Below the pieces are notes generated by a model. The model was not told the DNA's origin. It did not search any database and saw only the letters and a program-made list of their open reading frames with translations. From NCBI GenBank assembly GCA_965200155.1, contig CBDATR010000024.1:384001-448000 (forward strand): a stretch of 64,000 bases of DNA, read 5' to 3'. The DNA is from Nitrosopumilaceae archaeon. Lineage in GTDB: Archaea; Thermoproteota; Nitrososphaeria; Nitrososphaerales; Nitrosopumilaceae. This document shows positions 13,794 through 36,593 of this stretch, piece after piece. Within the stretch, counting starts at the first letter, position 1, and each line of letters opens with the position of its first letter. Made by a program: the position numbers and the translations under genes.

Positions 13794-15626
13794 ATGTTAA
13801 AATCTACTAACCGTAACAATATCGTACTTAAAGCTTTAATCGGGGGGGGGGGTCTCCTCCTTGCACTTTTACTAGTATTAGTACCGGCCACTGATCTTGC
13901 GTTTGCTCAAACAATCGAGTCTATCCACATATCTGTAGGTCCCGCCTCCACTAGTGCCACCGTTACATGGCATCAGTACCCAGGTGATACCGAATATGTC
14001 GTGGTGTTACGTAATGGATTTGGAGATAGAATTCCCGGTGGGGTAACACGCACTTCAGGAGACACATATGATATTACCGGACTGACTCCTGACTCCCAAT
14101 ATATCGTATTTGTCAGAACCATTGGAGACGGCTTTGTCAAGTCCAACACTGTACAGTTTAAGACAAAAGTCGCTCCCTCTAGTTCCATTAATACTATACC
14201 AGACATTACCATGGATGAGTCCGAGAGAAGAACCATACCACTCAGTGTAACCCCTGCGAGTGATTCTGTCACATATGCAATAACCAAACAGGACGGCACG
14301 GCTGCACCCAGATTTGCATACATAGCTGACGTATCTCCTGACCGTACATTTAGAGACGGCATTGTTTTGGCTCCTAACAGAAGCGAAAGTGGACAATATT
14401 CACTGCGTGTCACAGCAACTATTGGTAGCGACACCATACATGAGGACTTTGCACTTACCGTGAATGACGGCACTATAGATCCACCTAGTATCTCAGAAAT
14501 AACACCAAATTCTATAACTATTGAAGTACCTGGAACTCAACCAAAAGATGTTAAAAACTCACATCTTTGTATGATGGCTGATGTCTCTGAATCTTCTCCA
14601 TTGAAGTATAAACTGACCGAATCTCTGACTATTCATGGTACCATGACAATCACAAACCTCTTACCTAATACTGATTACACCATCCGTGTGATCAACGAAT
14701 GCGAAGATATAGGTTTAGCAACCTTCAATGTCAATACTGGCTCCTCCGCCCTAAGCTTCACTGACACCATAAATGACATTACCATGGCCGAGGGCACAAC
14801 ACGTAACATACAGATCAATGCAACTGATTCTGATAATAGGGACATTACATATAGTGTAGAGGTCCTGAACGACAAGACATTACCTGGCTCTGCGAAAATA
14901 TTAGATAGTACCCTCGTTTTGGAGCCTGATAGAACAGCAGCAGGGGAATACACTCTACGTGTCACAGCAACTGCTGGCAGCGACACTAAACGTGATGAAT
15001 TTGTACTTACCGTAAGTGACCCTGGTATTAATCCACCCCAAATCAAAACTCAAAATAGCACCTCTGTAACTATAGAGGTCGCCTCAGAGGACTATAATAC
15101 AAAAGACCCAACCTGTACAACCGCCGCTATCTTCAAAACCTCCTCCGGAGCTGCAAGTGCTGATTTAGAGGATTTCGAATCAAACCCCCTTACAATTACG
15201 GGCCTCTCACCTGATACTGCGTACACCATACGTGTGTTTAAATCCTGTGAACCCGATGTTGGAAGGCTGGGAATCCTAAAGTTCACTACATCTAGTAACA
15301 GTCAGACATCACCTGATAACAGTCAGACATCACCTGATAACAGTCAGACATCACCTGATAACAGTCAGACATTAGTACTAAGTAGAACCATAAGTGGCAA
15401 TGATGTTACTCTAAGCTGGAACGACTTGGCAGATACTGCCTATATCGTGGCGGTATTTGATGGGGACGGAGACCGAGTCATTACTGGCGGATCAGCACGC
15501 GTATCAACTAACTCCTATACCCTCGAAGACCTAGATGCTGACACATATACGGCATTTGTGAGAACCCCTGGACCCTCAGGAACTCATACCATGTCCAACA
15601 CTGTAACCTTTACCATCACTAGTTAA
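13794..15626 (+). CDS. Secreted fibronectin type III / Ig-like repeat surface protein
   Basis: Signal peptide (LLLALLLVLVPATDLAFA); FN3 motifs ITGLTPDSQYIVFVRT, ITNLLPNTDYTIRV, ITGLSPDTAYTIRV; cadherin-like GQYSLRVTAT/GEYTLRVTAT. Confidence 0.8.
   Translation: MLKSTNRNNIVLKALIGGGGLLLALLLVLVPATDLAFAQTIESIHISVGPASTSATVTWHQYPGDTEYVVVLRNGFGDRIPGGVTRTSGDTYDITGLTPDSQYIVFVRTIGDGFVKSNTVQFKTKVAPSSSINTIPDITMDESERRTIPLSVTPASDSVTYAITKQDGTAAPRFAYIADVSPDRTFRDGIVLAPNRSESGQYSLRVTATIGSDTIHEDFALTVNDGTIDPPSISEITPNSITIEVPGTQPKDVKNSHLCMMADVSESSPLKYKLTESLTIHGTMTITNLLPNTDYTIRVINECEDIGLATFNVNTGSSALSFTDTINDITMAEGTTRNIQINATDSDNRDITYSVEVLNDKTLPGSAKILDSTLVLEPDRTAAGEYTLRVTATAGSDTKRDEFVLTVSDPGINPPQIKTQNSTSVTIEVASEDYNTKDPTCTTAAIFKTSSGAASADLEDFESNPLTITGLSPDTAYTIRVFKSCEPDVGRLGILKFTTSSNSQTSPDNSQTSPDNSQTSPDNSQTLVLSRTISGNDVTLSWNDLADTAYIVAVFDGDGDRVITGGSARVSTNSYTLEDLDADTYTAFVRTPGPSGTHTMSNTVTFTITS
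13842..13852 (+). repeat. G11 homopolymer in signal-peptide coding region
   Basis: ATC GGG GGG GGG GGT; counted directly. Confidence 0.9.
15296..15372 (+). repeat. 21-bp coding tandem repeat (NSQTSPD x3.7)
   Basis: TAACAGTCAGACATCACCTGA perfect copies. Confidence 0.95.
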
Positions 15627-30747: not shown

Positions 30748-31710
30748 TTATCTGCTTCGTGCCAAGGTGGCTATCTGTAATGCAACAATAATGGCTATCA
30801 ATGCCACAACAGGAAAGAAGAGCGAGTTCAGCTGGGATGATGCCTCCTCTATATTCAATACGGATTCGGATACGGCGCCCACGCTGCCGTCAATGTTTGA
30901 GCTTGCCTGCCGTAATGTATGGTTAAAGTTATCCACCTGCTCCTGTAGTTGGCGCAGCTCAGATGAGGTCTGTGTCAGCATCAGGTTGAGGTTAAGTATC
31001 TGCTCGGATATGCCGCCAATATCCTGCTTTAGTATGGTGGTGGCGACTGAGCCATGGGATATGGTCCCCTGATCAAAGGCCACCGCATGGAATACGTAGG
31101 TACCCTCCTGTTCCGGGATATAATCCGCATAGAATAACCCTTGGTGAAGTGTCCGAAAGGTATCAGTAATGTCCTGGACAGTGCCGTCCGGCAGGTGAAC
31201 GTGGGTGGTGCCCAGCAATGTTGTAGGGTCATTTCCCACAAGTAATCCGTCACTTGTGACCTGCACGAATATTCTCATGCTTGTATTCACCGCCGCGGTT
31301 TCCGGCGCAAACATGCTCATGTGCAGTGTGCGCTGCACCGGCGTATCCACCAATTCAGAGGTAGCAGCGAATCGCACGTTCGTGGTATCAGAGAGCCCGC
31401 CCTGTTGTGTGCTAAGTGCCTCGATAGTATAAGTGCCATAAGGGAACGTGATTGATGCTTCCGGCCACATCAGTATGGTCTGCTGAAAGTAGCCGGTTTC
31501 ATCTGCAGTAATTTGGTCGAATCGCGTAATGGTGTTGTCTGGACCAAATACCCGTATTATAATGTCCTCGCCGGGTATGGCCTGGCCGAATACAAAGAGT
31601 GGGTGACCGGTGGCATATACCTTGCTGTTAGTGTACATTTCCAGCTGGGCGTATGATAATGGTATGGTGCATATTATCAGGATACCGCACAGTAATGGTA
31701 TGGCGCGCAT
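30748..31710 (-). CDS. Membrane-anchored Ig-like/coiled-coil hypothetical protein
   Basis: Signal peptide, beta-rich domains, heptad-rich segment, C-terminal TM helix. Confidence 0.7.
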   Translation of the reverse strand: MRAIPLLCGILIICTIPLSYAQLEMYTNSKVYATGHPLFVFGQAIPGEDIIIRVFGPDNTITRFDQITADETGYFQQTILMWPEASITFPYGTYTIEALSTQQGGLSDTTNVRFAATSELVDTPVQRTLHMSMFAPETAAVNTSMRIFVQVTSDGLLVGNDPTTLLGTTHVHLPDGTVQDITDTFRTLHQGLFYADYIPEQEGTYVFHAVAFDQGTISHGSVATTILKQDIGGISEQILNLNLMLTQTSSELRQLQEQVDNFNHTLRQASSNIDGSVGAVSESVLNIEEASSQLNSLFFPVVALIAIIVALQIATLARSR

Positions 31711-31879
31711 GAAGTTTTATGTATGACTCCCGATAATATGGATTATGGGTCAGTGCCAGGGATGTAATGTAGTGCCAGTTGCGACTAGCGCTCTTGTGAT
31801 CACGCGCTCAACCAGTATGCACAATCTTGGGCGCAGTTGGACTCATATCAGTTGTTCAACAAATATGGCAATACGCATG

Positions 31880-31978
31880 GTATGAGTTCACGTCTTCCGG
31901 AATCTTATGCACAAAAGAACCGGTTCTTTAACTGTCGCGATCAGTTATGCGTAAATTTAGACACAGGTGAACTCATAC
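31880..31978 (-). mobile_element. 99-bp MITE variant
   Basis: TSD TACGCATG; carries AGAACCGGTTCT. Confidence 0.95.
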
Positions 31979-32175
31979 TACGCATGAGCTGATAACGTGT
32001 GACAAATGTATCACAAGATGGCAGGTGTTGAGTTGGAAATGATCGCGAATGCAACCAGCCCCGCTAAAACGTATGGTATTATCACATCATACAAACCCCA
32101 TAAATCGATTAGATATACAACGGACTGGTCTCATCCGGACAAATAGCACATTTTGATGTCAAGACCCAAGAGCGG

Positions 32176-33648
32176 TTGTATAGCGGTCACCATAAGTCTT
32201 TGAGAACATGGTACCTCGCTCCCGGACAGTACATGGCTTTGGCTTGTCACCATTATTCCCGCCCTGACGCCTCCGGTTGGGCGGGGAACGGTTACTCGCT
32301 CCCGGACGACACGCTCTGCCGCCCTATACAGGGAAACCGGTTACTAAACGCCGCGTTGATATCGGCGTGAAATTCCTGGTTACATATTGAATGTGTCCCT
32401 AATTGATCGTGATTTGCTGTCAACGTGTCCACACACGTGACGGGTCTGTGGCTCGTTGGGCGGGTAAACCGCCCCCTCATGTATTTCGCTGGCACGGCCA
32501 CCAATTCAATCCCCAGTGCCTCGCACTTTTGTACTACTTTCCGGCGGAACTCCCCTACCCGGTTCTCGCGCATGGAAAGGTTCATTGTTATTTTGTGGTT
32601 CCCGCCATGACTGGTCATTACTTTCGGTGATAAATCCTCTAGTACTACCTTGTCTGCACCTTTGGTGATCGCGTGGACTACTCTATTCGTGGAGTCGTTA
32701 GTTATGTTGTTGGCTTTCTGTCGTAGTCGAGTGATTTGTTTCTCAATCTTTCGCTTCCTGCGCTTACCTTTCGCGTTCTAATACTCTGGAGTGCGCTAAT
32801 CTCCCGCAATGTAGAACGATGTTTCATGTTGGGAATCATCGTTCTGCCATTCGTGTCAGCTGTTACAGCTAGATGTTTCCCGCCGACATCCATACCGCGA
32901 ACAACGCCGGTCGGTAGGTGGTGTCTCCCATATATTGATGTGAATCTCGAATTGACGCTCCCTATTGGTTACTCGTTCCACTATCTTGAATGAGCGCATG
33001 TCCAAGGAACGATCGATTGGTTTGGTTGTTCTCACCACACCAATGCCCGGCAGGTATAGTTCGCGAGAACCGCGCCTTATTGGCGGACTCACACAAGACA
33101 GTATTACTCTATTATTGTCACGCCGGTGTGGTATTTAATTAGAATGATCCTCGTACGCGCGCCTACACGCGACAGACGCCTGTAGTATGGCGCCCCGGCC
33201 ATAGTTGGATGGTAACTCGCGCACCCATTTAATATCACGGCTCCACTTTGTCAATTCCAGGAACAAACCATTCTTGTTGGACGGGTAAACCGTCCCCTGA
33301 TAACCGTTATAGAACGTGGTAGCTGATTCACGTATAATGAATCACAGACCATATGGTGACTTGGCGGACTCGTTCTTATTCTTGACCTTGGCCGGATCAT
33401 GCTTCAATTCAAGAGTGGTTCCGGGTATGTAGTAACCGCCCAGCGTGATCTCGGATACCGCCCTGTTATACACGTAATCGGATGTGTGACCAAATATCTC
33501 GGCGCGCCGGGAGAACTCCTTATCATTCTTCAACGGTATAATGACGGTTCGAATTATGTCATCCATCATCTGGCAATTCTACTCTAGTAGTGGTTCTATA
33601 AAACTACGGTTCTATACCCGGCAAAGACTTATGGTGGACGCTATACAA
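32176..33648 (-). mobile_element. TIR-bounded element carrying only a tnpB-like gene
   Basis: 27-bp inverted repeats 32176..32202 and 33622..33648 (25/27) enclose the tnpB pseudogene. Confidence 0.75.
32292..33569 (-). pseudogene. tnpB: TnpB/Cas12f-like RuvC nuclease, multiply frameshifted
   Basis: YVYNRAV helix, LYLPGIGVVR, RuvC-I MDVGGKHLAVT, RuvC-II VVLEDL, GEFRRKVVQKCEALGIELVAVPAKY, RuvC-III HADINAA. Confidence 0.85.
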
Positions 33649-33887
33649 TTTCCACGGATATGTGGCGGAGAATGACAAAAAGGCCATAAGAGAATATGGA
33701 GGATGTGATAAACGTAGTGGAGAATTTCAATGACCTCAACGTCAGGAAGGACTTGAGGTGGTTTGAGCAATTGTTTGGTGTTGCACCGCAAAAGTGATAC
33801 GCCAGAGGATGAAGCACAACTGATGCTTTGTCAAGGATGCAGAAATTGGCGCCACCACCCTAAACGGTTGCGCCAATCACACGCTAC

Positions 33888-36593
33888 TTATGGTTTTATC
33901 TCCATTATACTGATACCGTCATCCAATACTCCGGTAACCACCGCATATAACCGGCTATTGGTAACGAACAGGTCAATATCACTGGCCCCATTCAAATATG
34001 AAAAGCCCTGACTATTATCATACACGTGAGTCACTGCTGCTGGACTCCCCGGATTTGTTATATCAATTATCTGTATGCCGTCATCCAGTATACTTGTCAC
34101 AACAACATAGGTCCGGCCCAGTATGGTAGTGGCATGTATCTCGTTTGGTCCATTCAGGACCGATATGCCATTAGCATTATCATATATCTCGCTAACGGCA
34201 AAAGATTCCTCCGGTACCGTTATGTCAATTACCTGGATTGCTCCGGCCCACTTGCCTGCCACTAGGGCATATATACGATCATGCATATTCACTATCTCTA
34301 CGTCGCCCGCTCCCCTCAATGCATGGAATCCAAAGTTTCTATCACTAGCACTGAATACGGGCCAGGGATATGCCGGATTCGTTATATCCAGGATTTGAAC
34401 GGCATCACTATTCGTCCCGGATATGACCGCATAGATCTTGCCGTGTATTATGGCAATTTCCACATCCCAGGCGCCATCCAAGCTCCTTATGGTTATTTCA
34501 TCATTTTCTATATCCTCGTCCGCCACGTACTCCTCCTCATTGTATATGGCACCGGCCGGTAACGGGAACTGTATATTCGACAATTCAATTATCTGCACGG
34601 CATCATCAATGTGGCTGGCCACAACAGCCACTACACGACCAAAATTCTCACGAACTGATATCCCCCTGGCCCCCTCTAATGCCTCAAAGCCGTCCTCGCC
34701 GTCCCGTATATCCAGGACCGGGATGGGATTTTCCGGATTCGTTATGTCAATTATCTGGACGCCATTATCATTATAGCTGGTCACCAAGCAGTATGTATTC
34801 TCCCCTATCGATATAACGGCCACGTCTCCGGGCCCGTCCAGGGTCTCAAAGCCGTTTACATCATCAAATATGCTGCTTACCGGTCTTGGATCCTCCGGTA
34901 TGGTAATATTGAATATGTGCACGGCATCCTGCGCGTAATTGGCTACAATACCGTAATGGCTGTCCCGAATTTTAGTGACATGAATGCTGCCGGGCCCGTC
35001 CATCGCTAAATCTATGTCATCTAGTGCTAGTGTACTGCTGGTCAGTGTGGGGGCTGCAGGCCGTGTTGGATCCAGCACGTGTATCTGGTCGTCTAATGAG
35101 GCGGCCACCAGTATGTATGTGGTTCCCGCTATATCAACGGCGGATACTCCCTGTGCCCCTCTGAGTAATATCTTGTCCTCCTCAGCATCATCTTCCTCGG
35201 GAATGGTATCGGACAGGGGCCTTGGCTGGGACGGGTTGGCCAGGTCCACTATCTGTATGGCATCATCGTCGTAACTGCTTATTACAGCCCTGGCGTTACC
35301 GGATGTTGTTATAAGATTCATGTCCCAGGGACTGGCCAGGGCATTGAAGCGTCCCCTGTCATCCAATATGGTATTCTCCAGTAACGGCATAAAGGGAGTG
35401 GTGATATTGATTATTCGCATGGCATTTTCGTTATACGCCAGTACGGCAGCAAAGGTCCCATCATCATCATAAATGACCTCAACGTCTATGGCGCCGTCTA
35501 TGGGCTCGGTCGCGTTATTCATGTCGGTTATGGGCAATGGTAGGCGCGGATTTATCATGTCTATTATTTGTAGGGCATCATCGTCGTAGCTTGCCACCAA
35601 GGCGTACATGCGGTTCTGTATTTGGGCAGCCGCAATGGCGCGGGCGCCCTCCAGATTCTCAAAGCCCCTCATGTCATCGAACGCCGCCGCTACGGGAAAT
35701 GGCTCATACGGATTGGTAATATCAATCACCTGTATGCCGTCATCATCATGGCTGACCACCACCGCGTATATGCCGTCGGGTGCATCAAATATTTCCACAT
35801 CGCTGGCGCCATCCAGTGCCGTATACCGGTCAGTGTCATCATACATGGCCGCGGCCGGTACCGGATTAAATGGATTGGACATGTCCAGGATTAGGACGGA
35901 GCTCTTTCCCAGTATGATTGCATAAGGGGTATCCTGTATCGTTACGGTCTTTACGTTGTTCGCGCCTTCTATGGCATCAAAGCCTGCCATGTCAGAGTAT
36001 ATCTCGCTGACTGAAACGGGGACGGCAGGATTTGACATGTCTATTATCTGGACCGAGTCCCTGCCGGTGGCCACGCCGTATACACGACTGGATACAGTTA
36101 TGGTGTCTATATCCCGCACCCTGTCCAGTGCCTCAAAGGTGCTTCGCTCATATGTTATGGTTATAGTGGTATTGCCGGTGGCCAGGATACCCTGTATTAT
36201 GGCACCATCCGCCGCCGATACAGTTACTGCCGGAATGTCCCGGACTGCCTCTATATTCCATGGAAGAATAGCATCACCGTACAGTATTATGCCGCCAGCG
36301 CCGTACTCTTGCGCCACATCTATTCCATTATTGCCGCCCGTATACTGGGCTAGCAGAATTGATCCCCGTGCTGGCATGGAGCCATTCTGTATATGATGAC
36401 CCTGTCCTGTGGCCAAGATTATTCCGTCTTCCGGATACCACATTGGAGTGGCATCAAAGAAGGTATTGCCCACTATCAGCTGTGTCTGCCATATGGTACG
36501 ATGAATCTCAGAGACCGGCGATATAGTAGGCGCAGCCTCTGCGGCCACCGGTATGACCAGGATTAGTGCGCATATTATGGCAACATTTAGCAC
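33888..36593 (-). CDS. Secreted LVIVD-like beta-propeller repeat protein with N-terminal PA-like domain
   Basis: About 12 repeats YALVASYDDDAxQIIDITNPxxP..GFxALxGA; AQEYGAGGIILY and IPAVTVSAADG resemble a PA domain; GTG start at 36593 inferred. Confidence 0.75.
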   Translation of the reverse strand: MLNVAIICALILVIPVAAEAAPTISPVSEIHRTIWQTQLIVGNTFFDATPMWYPEDGIILATGQGHHIQNGSMPARGSILLAQYTGGNNGIDVAQEYGAGGIILYGDAILPWNIEAVRDIPAVTVSAADGAIIQGILATGNTTITITYERSTFEALDRVRDIDTITVSSRVYGVATGRDSVQIIDMSNPAVPVSVSEIYSDMAGFDAIEGANNVKTVTIQDTPYAIILGKSSVLILDMSNPFNPVPAAAMYDDTDRYTALDGASDVEIFDAPDGIYAVVVSHDDDGIQVIDITNPYEPFPVAAAFDDMRGFENLEGARAIAAAQIQNRMYALVASYDDDALQIIDMINPRLPLPITDMNNATEPIDGAIDVEVIYDDDGTFAAVLAYNENAMRIINITTPFMPLLENTILDDRGRFNALASPWDMNLITTSGNARAVISSYDDDAIQIVDLANPSQPRPLSDTIPEEDDAEEDKILLRGAQGVSAVDIAGTTYILVAASLDDQIHVLDPTRPAAPTLTSSTLALDDIDLAMDGPGSIHVTKIRDSHYGIVANYAQDAVHIFNITIPEDPRPVSSIFDDVNGFETLDGPGDVAVISIGENTYCLVTSYNDNGVQIIDITNPENPIPVLDIRDGEDGFEALEGARGISVRENFGRVVAVVASHIDDAVQIIELSNIQFPLPAGAIYNEEEYVADEDIENDEITIRSLDGAWDVEIAIIHGKIYAVISGTNSDAVQILDITNPAYPWPVFSASDRNFGFHALRGAGDVEIVNMHDRIYALVAGKWAGAIQVIDITVPEESFAVSEIYDNANGISVLNGPNEIHATTILGRTYVVVTSILDDGIQIIDITNPGSPAAVTHVYDNSQGFSYLNGASDIDLFVTNSRLYAVVTGVLDDGISIMEIKP

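Follow-up and report, generated by a model that had tools for sequence, protein, structure and literature searches.

A decayed tnpB element bounded by IS630-type terminal inverted repeats in a Nitrosopumilaceae archaeon

A tnpB pseudogene enclosed by a pair of terminal inverted repeats (TIRs) was found in the genome of a Nitrosopumilaceae archaeon, within the 64-kb stretch of DNA that was analysed here and is referred to below as the window (C24:384001-448000; the assembly comprises 2.38 Mb in 51 contigs and is 87.6% complete). The element is very probably a decayed, non-autonomous member of the IS630/Tc1-mariner type, in which TA-flanked 22-bp TIRs enclosed only tnpB and a presumed omega-RNA; it would have been mobilised in trans, and homing by its TnpB appears to have left a TAM footprint in the flanking DNA.

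Ends, target-site duplication and copies of the element

The two arms of the repeat, at 32176-32202 and 33622-33648, were each 27 nt long and paired at 25/27 positions (93% complementary, within the 64-kb window), as the earlier note on this DNA had read them. When up to 3 mismatches were allowed, the 24-mer core of the repeat occurred exactly twice in the window, and the chance control gave 0 in 100 dinucleotide-preserving shuffles of the same stretch, which confirmed that the inverted repeat around the tnpB remnant is real. Its bounds, however, had to be redrawn. When the ends of 16 near-full copies and all other ends of the family were aligned, the repeat common to the family was found to be 22 nt plus TA, and the outermost TTG/CAA of the 27-mer proved to be flank, lying outside the element. 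Thus, the inverted ends proposed earlier were real, but the true TIR is 22 bp long and is followed by TA and then by flanking DNA. On the left (the tnpB 3′ side) the outermost bases of the 27-mer were a chance match; on the right (the tnpB 5′ side) they were a conserved flank motif.

In the family, the repeat reads TA + TAGCGGTCACCATAAGTCTTTG at the tnpB 3′ end and TA + TAGCG[C/T]CCACCATAAGTCTTTG at the tnpB 5′ end, with 2-3 mismatches between the LE and RE TIRs. In the window, the tnpB 3′ (RE) side thus begins with TA at 32179..32180, followed by the 22-bp RE TIR TAGCGGTCACCATAAGTCTTTG at 32181..32202 on the plus strand, as placed by the copy ends and by the match to the TIRs of an IS630-like element. 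On the tnpB 5′ (LE) side, repeat search and copy-end alignment placed the 22-bp LE TIR at 33622..33643 on the minus strand (TAGCGTCCACCATAAGTCTTTG in tnpB sense). It is followed by the second TA at 33644..33645 and by a TAM-like flank motif at 33646..33648 on the minus strand (TTG in tnpB sense, CAA on the plus strand), which was recognised from LE flank counts and belongs to the target.

Comparing filled with empty sites for junctions and duplications, as had been proposed in the earlier note, yielded a single TA in the empty site and an element boundary at the repeat, which was placed at TA/TAGCG...CGCTA/TA (slashes mark the boundary). The termini are therefore of the TA/TAGCG form and not of the TGT...ACA form suggested earlier. 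Paralogous empty sites were sought for 36 TIR pairs, of which 2 gave usable matches. At C34:62498-62590, a filled ~92-bp MITE had TA at both ends (ctcaca-TA-[element]-TA-tgccc), and its empty paralogue, which was 91% identical, had a single TA (ctcaca-TA-tgccc). For a second element, C35:24047-25240, the paralogous site showed 2 nt at the insertion point. Among the 36 TIR pairs, none of the tnpB copies from the window's subfamily yielded an empty paralogous site. Further comparisons came from two tnpB copies interrupted by the IS630-like partner element: the partner end started right after TA, and the same TA at both nested junctions was present in uninterrupted tnpB copies, including that of the window. 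Together, these junctions identify TA as the target-site duplication, on the basis of one full pair and three partial comparisons, none from the window's tnpB subfamily. In a 2026 review, duplication of a target TA is named as the hallmark of IS630 and mariner insertions (PMC13565253). The earlier impression that no duplication was visible did not hold, the TA duplication sitting inside the 27-mer repeat. No empty allele of the window locus was bridged in contigs from four public runs, in which contigs broke at repeats.

Sequences related to the 1.47-kb unit were located by blastn at 70 sites across the genome (90 HSPs). Homology among the copies began at window position 32179 and stopped at ~33645-33647, and 15 near-full copies had a median pairwise identity of 86%. 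Because the longest open frames in these 15 copies were only 111-333 aa, all of them are pseudogenes, and so is every tnpB copy in the genome; no intact copy of the window's subfamily was found in the assembly (longest frame 333 aa among the 15 near-full copies). A search of 40 related genomes for a live copy of this subfamily returned distant DNA matches only, and a search among longer proteins with a 228-aa fragment gave no match at E 1e-10, a result that carries little weight. Many tnpB copies were also interrupted by an unrelated MITE of ~100 bp nested within them.

The 24-mer core was then followed across the genome, a check that the earlier note had named, and occurred 141 times when up to 5 mismatches were allowed. 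What lay between its pairs was a tnpB pseudogene, an IS630-family transposase pseudogene or a ~92-bp MITE, of which there were seven. Since the 24-mer also occurred alone and in MITEs, two unrelated solo repeats or MITEs might by chance have come to lie on either side of an unrelated tnpB, with no transposon unit at all. We consider the probability of this negligible, because both ends were retained at a constant spacing in no fewer than 15 near-full copies from separate loci, with homology stopping at the repeat. The copy alignment thus refuted the possibility, raised earlier, of two unrelated insertions; nor did other tnpB copies lack these ends, since the copies kept both.

The tnpB pseudogene and its 3′ region

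One tnpB remnant lay between the arms. It was on the minus strand, at 32292..33569 with the start ATG at 33569, and was delimited by tblastn with an intact TnpB and by ORF pieces. The intact query, a 450-aa TnpB from a genome of the same genus (L036), aligned over its residues 1-408 to the window copy at 36% identity (E 1e-76). The main frame of this copy contained 5 in-frame stops; RuvC-I and the zinc finger had moved to other frames, and the zinc finger was disrupted. RuvC-I (MDVGGKHLAVT) fell in the ORF at 32702-32893, RuvC-II read VVLEDLS and RuvC-III read FHADINAAFSN; the ORF pieces and the tblastn alignment thus agreed with the earlier description of a single frameshifted tnpB-like gene with MDVG, EDL and HADINAA motifs. 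The last piece scored 22.6 bits against Pfam PF07282, below the 26.3 cut-off, and the intact L036 protein scored 57.4 bits against PF07282, 34.2 bits against PF01385 and 113.9 bits against NF040570. In an alignment of 11 clade members, the RuvC triad D223, E309 and D395 was invariant, as were the four cysteines of the zinc finger, C366/C369/C385/C388. Homology across the WED, REC, RuvC and TNB regions indicates that the window gene is a TnpB. With its in-frame stops, its frameshifts and its motifs in different frames, the window copy is a dead member of this family, as the earlier note had cautioned. The extra segment of ~45 aa noticed earlier after the VYNRA helix does exist, but it is a variable-length trait of the whole clade rather than an oddity of this copy: it was present in intact relatives of 450-487 aa and missing from those of 410-413 aa.

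From TnpB biology, an omega-RNA scaffold would be expected to extend from the 3′ end of tnpB through RE (32181..32400, minus strand), with a guide that would come from flanking sequence below 32179. The 3′ region, which the earlier note had called structured, folded with an MFE of -77.8 kcal/mol (z -1.76), and 8/200 shuffles folded equally well. An Rfam scan of 31800-33900 gave no match below E 0.67; the sole match, sR51 at that value, was irrelevant. In the copy alignment (1475 columns), columns 1251-1350 and 1451-1475 were conserved at 94-96%, and RNAalifold, applied to the last 230 columns of 15 copies, returned no convincing consensus structure. These data lend weak support to a structured 3′ region belonging to no Rfam family; the omega-RNA itself is presumed from TnpB biology. 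Contigs from RNA libraries covered the element in part; such contigs cannot show transcription.

Partner transposase and one-sided flank motif

Pairs of the 24-mer also bounded a 2045-bp element at C13:13691-15735, which included three nested MITEs and had about a dozen partial copies elsewhere in the genome (93-98% identity). The RE TIR of the window matched its left TIR at 21/22 positions and its right TIR at 20/22. This element gave weak DDE_3 matches, and it matched residues 60-343 of an intact 364-aa transposase from a genome of the same family but another genus (G023). The latter protein scored 145.7 bits against NF033545 (cut-off 100) and 79.8 bits against DDE_3, and by these scores is assigned to the IS630 family; its own 1441-bp element had a 30-bp TIR starting TATAGCG. 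The window element thus has its ends in common with an IS630-like element, which, judging from these matches, encodes an IS630-family transposase. In 5/5 of the IS630-like copies that covered the site, one frameshift was shared beside the second catalytic Asp. Programmed frameshifting was considered and rejected, there being no homopolymer run or slippery-type repeat near the site, which resembled a shared small deletion. No intact transposase with these TIRs was found in the 87.6%-complete assembly, all IS630-like copies being broken, and the G023 protein, from another genus, was the only intact homologue seen; the source of transposase is therefore either dead or unassembled.

Among the TIR pairs examined in this genome, tnpB and transposase were never found together within one pair. 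Moreover, Y1 TnpA (PF01797) and serine recombinase (PF00239) each gave 0 matches in the genome, and the control genomes were positive for both. Mobilisation in trans is inferred from the shared ends, and the combined data (IS630-like ends, TA duplication, no Y1 TnpA or serine recombinase) support the proposal, made in the earlier note, of a non-autonomous TIR element carrying tnpB and moved in trans by a DDE transposase, which would be of the IS630 family. In such a scheme, two 22-bp TIRs, each beside a duplicated target TA, would enclose tnpB and the presumed 3′ omega-RNA region, and the unit would be cut and pasted by an IS630-family DDE transposase supplied by a partner element with the same TIRs. 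The broken IS630-like copies and the ~92-bp MITEs would then be the decayed partner and its derivatives remaining in the same genome, the whole family there now apparently being dead, cargo and transposase alike.

Flanking sequences were compared after the 141 TIR ends had been sorted by the sequence just inside the TIR. Just outside TA, the tnpB 5′ (LE) flanks (n = 25) had G at -1 in 22, T at -2 in 16 and T at -3 in 16, a bias that was significant relative to the 116 other ends (Fisher p 9e-11, 6e-5 and 5e-4, respectively). No such bias was detected at the tnpB 3′ (RE) ends (n = 26), at the IS630-like ends (n = 29; 13 left and 16 right) or at the other TIR ends (n = 61). A second tnpB subfamily, with ~65% DNA identity to that of the window and nearly the same TIR, had AC in 5/5 and TAC in 4/5 of its LE flanks, and no motif in its RE flanks. 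That TTG might be part of the element, with TA further out, was ruled out by the lack of TA at -5/-4. Given that the two tnpB subfamilies showed TTG and AC, respectively, while their TIRs were almost alike, the flank motif tracks the cargo and not the ends.

Because it tracks the cargo, we read the motif as a TAM specific to each TnpB, approximately TTG+TA for the window's subfamily and (T)AC+TA for the second, which would have become enriched among surviving insertions. As in other OMEGA systems, TnpB would be guided to the empty site by an RNA that starts in the 3′ part of the element and runs on into the flank, and the resulting cut would lead to the element being copied back. Only for insertions beside a TAM would the empty site be cuttable, and restorable, by the element's own guide RNA; the TTG bias 5′ of TA on the tnpB 5′ side would then be the surviving footprint of that TAM. 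This reading of TTG+TA parallels the case of Fanzor, whose TAM is taken to include the 5′ TSD (PMC13565253).

The motifs might also have arisen independently of any TAM, either because the slightly differing left and right TIRs of each subfamily make the transpososome choose its targets asymmetrically or because the motif aids expression of tnpB from the flank. The LE and RE TIRs do differ at 2-3 positions, and in a second family of elements described below, both two-ended transposase-bearing copies of IS1595 type had G before the duplication on the gene 5′ side. However, no motif was seen at 13 left and 16 right IS630-like ends or at 61 further ends that carry the TIR of the window element, the two tnpB subfamilies had different motifs (TTG and AC) beside nearly the same TIR, and the review describes IS630 and mariner as solely TA-specific (PMC13565253). 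On balance, we regard this explanation as unlikely, though it merits serious consideration.

A motif confined to the tnpB 5′ side is also reminiscent of the target/TAM of IS200/IS605 elements. The window element could accordingly be a tnpB-only element of the IS1341 group that was moved as single-stranded DNA by a Y1 TnpA in trans into a TTG(TA) target, with no duplication and with an incidental repeat; the lone TA of the empty site would fit an element ending in TA as well as it fits a TA duplication. Several observations make this very unlikely. Y1 TnpA had 0 matches in the genome. The 22-bp repeats were true inverted repeats, common to the IS630-family element and to MITEs that lacked the flank motif, and IS200/IS605 elements have neither TIRs nor a TSD (PMC13565253). 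In addition, a sister family in a related genome (G005) had variable 8-bp duplications, which are not made by a Y1 mechanism. The reading of the window element as a trans-mobilised TIR element of IS630 type is thus retained.

Relatives and comparison with known systems

Among 5.8 billion proteins searched, 44 matched at E ≤ 1e-10, the named ones being from Cenarchaeum MAGs. Among species-representative genomes, the close matches were likewise Nitrosopumilaceae/Cenarchaeum MAGs, and the next-best were bacterial, at 23-38% identity; by these matches, the TnpB clade appears to be narrow. The subfamily consensus was ~53-55% identical to the closest intact proteins. Parts of the window stretch were present in 10 public runs, sponge metagenomes among them.

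In G005, a genome of the same genus, 18 sister elements were examined, and 14/15 of those of the 450-aa type had an intact 450/451-aa ORF. Their TIRs were ~26 bp long and started GGGAATTATATAC, and perfect 8-bp duplications were present in 11/18. An element in the window's own genome (C13:31836 onwards) started with this TIR and encoded a protein with matches to IS1595-family transposase (PF12762, 64 bits; NF033547, 110 bits); in G005, two transposase-bearing elements with this TIR had both ends and 8-bp duplications. The ends of the G005 sister elements are classed on these matches as IS1595-family, a family whose insertions mostly come with TSDs of 8 bp (PMC8101967). Immediately before the duplication on the LE side, 16/18 of the G005 elements had G, and a mirrored C after the duplication was seen in 3/11 of those with perfect duplications; a copy in another species had A before its LE-side duplication. 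The only two transposase-bearing copies with this TIR in G005 both had G on the gene 5′ side as well, so that effects of cargo and vehicle are inseparable for the IS1595-type family. IS1595-family elements of another genome (G006) were considered as a control for the G motif and were unsuited, their TIRs being unrelated.

It is conceivable, and we propose it tentatively, that a Nitrosopumilaceae-specific TnpB clade switched between unrelated DDE vehicles and left, with each, a cargo-specific TAM footprint outside the duplication. If so, these fossils would be natural evidence that TnpB homing works with prokaryotic cut-and-paste DDE transposons, that it selects the insertions that persist, and that recognition of the TAM or target includes the duplication.

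In prokaryotes, TnpB is considered an uncommon passenger of DDE transposons, and what the partnership gains is disputed. The 2026 review argued that an OMEGA nuclease may bring little advantage, a break being left in any case when the transposon is excised by cut-and-paste (PMC13565253). The present genome forms a compact natural data set in this respect: a transposase element, MITEs and two tnpB subfamilies all end in one TIR. With a flank motif confined to tnpB elements and specific to the subfamily, the effect of TnpB on the retention of DDE-borne insertions becomes testable, as does a joint reading of TSD and TAM, and the intact sister copies of G005 can be used directly at the bench. The target-motif footprint is unusually clear.

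The window element resembles the IS1341 group of IS200/IS605 in carrying tnpB only, in its many copies, in its short 5′ flank motif and in its presumed 3′ omega-RNA. IS200/IS605 elements, however, have no TIRs and no TSD and need a Y1 TnpA, whereas the window element is bounded by 22-bp TIRs and a duplicated TA, in a genome where no Y1 TnpA was found. IS607 likewise differs: it uses a serine recombinase TnpA and lacks TIRs, whereas PF00239 had 0 matches in the window's genome and the element has TIRs. With IS630-family MITEs, the element shares the TIRs and TA duplication of an autonomous partner and the lack of a transposase gene, but it differs from them in its 1.3-kb protein-coding cargo and presumed guide RNA of its own. 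Like Fanzor1 in eukaryotic Tc1/mariner elements (PMC13565253), it has a TnpB-family nuclease as the cargo of a TA-duplicating DDE transposon; unlike Fanzor1, it is prokaryotic, has a TnpB of ordinary size (~450 aa in live relatives) and is without a transposase of its own.

The closest precedent is found in Altae-Tran et al. 2023 (PMC10691335), whose main text links branches of TnpB to DDE transposases, among them DDE-6 with an IS630 transposase and an HTH protein. It also describes solo TnpBs whose ends hardly differ from those of systems with a transposase, which points to mobilisation in trans (PMC10691335). The association was restated in the 2026 review, which lists ISL2, IS630 and IS1031 (PMC13565253). 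A tnpB between TIRs, hitch-hiking on a DDE transposon, is thus a kind already published in 2023 (PMC10691335). Absent from the consulted passages of that paper's main text are a cargo-specific, one-sided flank motif and the arrangement of separate cargo and transposase elements with one TIR, plus MITEs (PMC10691335). A link between TnpB and IS1595 was found neither in those passages nor in the titles and abstract openings of papers retrieved for the pair, though the supplements of PMC10691335 may contain such a link or the clade itself. As in the DDE-associated branches of that paper, DDE-6 in particular (PMC10691335), TnpB of the window element lies inside symmetric inverted terminal repeats, with the 3′ end of tnpB near the transposon end. 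DDE-6 combines its IS630 transposase and separate HTH protein in one element (PMC10691335), whereas here cargo and transposase are separate and have only the TIRs in common. The host here is a Nitrosopumilaceae archaeon, and the likeness to DDE-6 is one of description. Taken together, these comparisons characterise the window element as a decayed archaeal member of the IS630-associated TnpB kind, from a sponge-associated ammonia-oxidising archaeon.

A direct repeat in the tnpB remnant and a hyper-abundant MITE

The tnpB remnant of the window was found to contain a 29-nt direct repeat, the two copies of which (32452-32480 and 33273-33301) are 86% identical. Both copies encode RGRFTRPT, and a G+C hairpin of the GGGCGGGTAAACCGCCCC type lies within the repeat. 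One copy is located in the zinc-finger region of the remnant. In another tnpB copy of the same genome, the repeat forms an in-frame insert of 8 aa (YTS-GRFTRPTS-QTCHVCG). When the whole genome was searched with the two versions of the repeat, allowing up to 2 mismatches, about 50 and about 35 matches, respectively, were obtained.

A separate, hyper-abundant MITE of about 100 bp, with the termini GTATGAGTTCAC...GTGAACTCATAC, was also observed; this element generates 8-bp duplications. Its copy at 31878-31981 of the window is flanked on each side by TACGCATG, and 29 of its termini were counted within the window. Across the genome (2.38 Mb), about 583 loci of this MITE were detected by blastn, and numerous copies of the tnpB and IS630-like elements contain one nested within them. 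In one case, two inverted MITEs form a composite with a common 8-bp duplication.

IS630-family transposases in the genome and genus

Among the decayed IS630-like transposase copies of this genome, a single frameshift adjoining the second catalytic Asp is shared by all five copies covering the site (contigs C13, at 15060-15135, C23, C31, C43, and C10). Neither a slippery-type repeat nor a homopolymer run was seen in the sequence around this frameshift. Because the same break is common to five copies, either the gene was disrupted before these elements multiplied, or the disruption was passed on among them by conversion. One IS630-like copy, on C23, is adjoined by a transposase fragment (locus L033, 3-620) that appears, from its motifs, to be IS66-like. 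In the same-genus genome G005, an intact IS630-type element encoding a 335-aa transposase (locus L064, 996-2003, minus strand) is inserted within a tnpB element with IS1595-type ends; thus, IS630-family elements are live in the genus.

tnpB genes on IS1595-type ends

In G005, a sister tnpB family (L036, L040, L045-L050, and L066-L072) has ends of the IS1595-family type. Its TIRs start with GGGAATTATATAC, span about 26 bp, and are accompanied by 8-bp target duplications; the 3' TIR contains the stop codon of the ORF. An intact ORF of 450 or 451 aa was present in 14 of the 15 copies examined. The window tnpB element adjoins a gene for a 320-aa secreted or membrane protein (30748-31710, minus strand), and the G005 orthologue (L036, 164-1126, plus strand) is likewise adjoined by a tnpB element, but one of the IS1595-type family and in the opposite relative orientation. 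Given these two differences, the insertion in G005 is an independent one into the same intergenic neighbourhood.

The same IS1595-type TIR also flanks the 1639-bp elements L062 and L063, which carry a much more divergent TnpB-like gene (in L062, 193-1605, minus strand; 470 aa, PF07282 at 54.5 bits). Therefore, at least two different TnpB cargoes are carried by this one type of vehicle.
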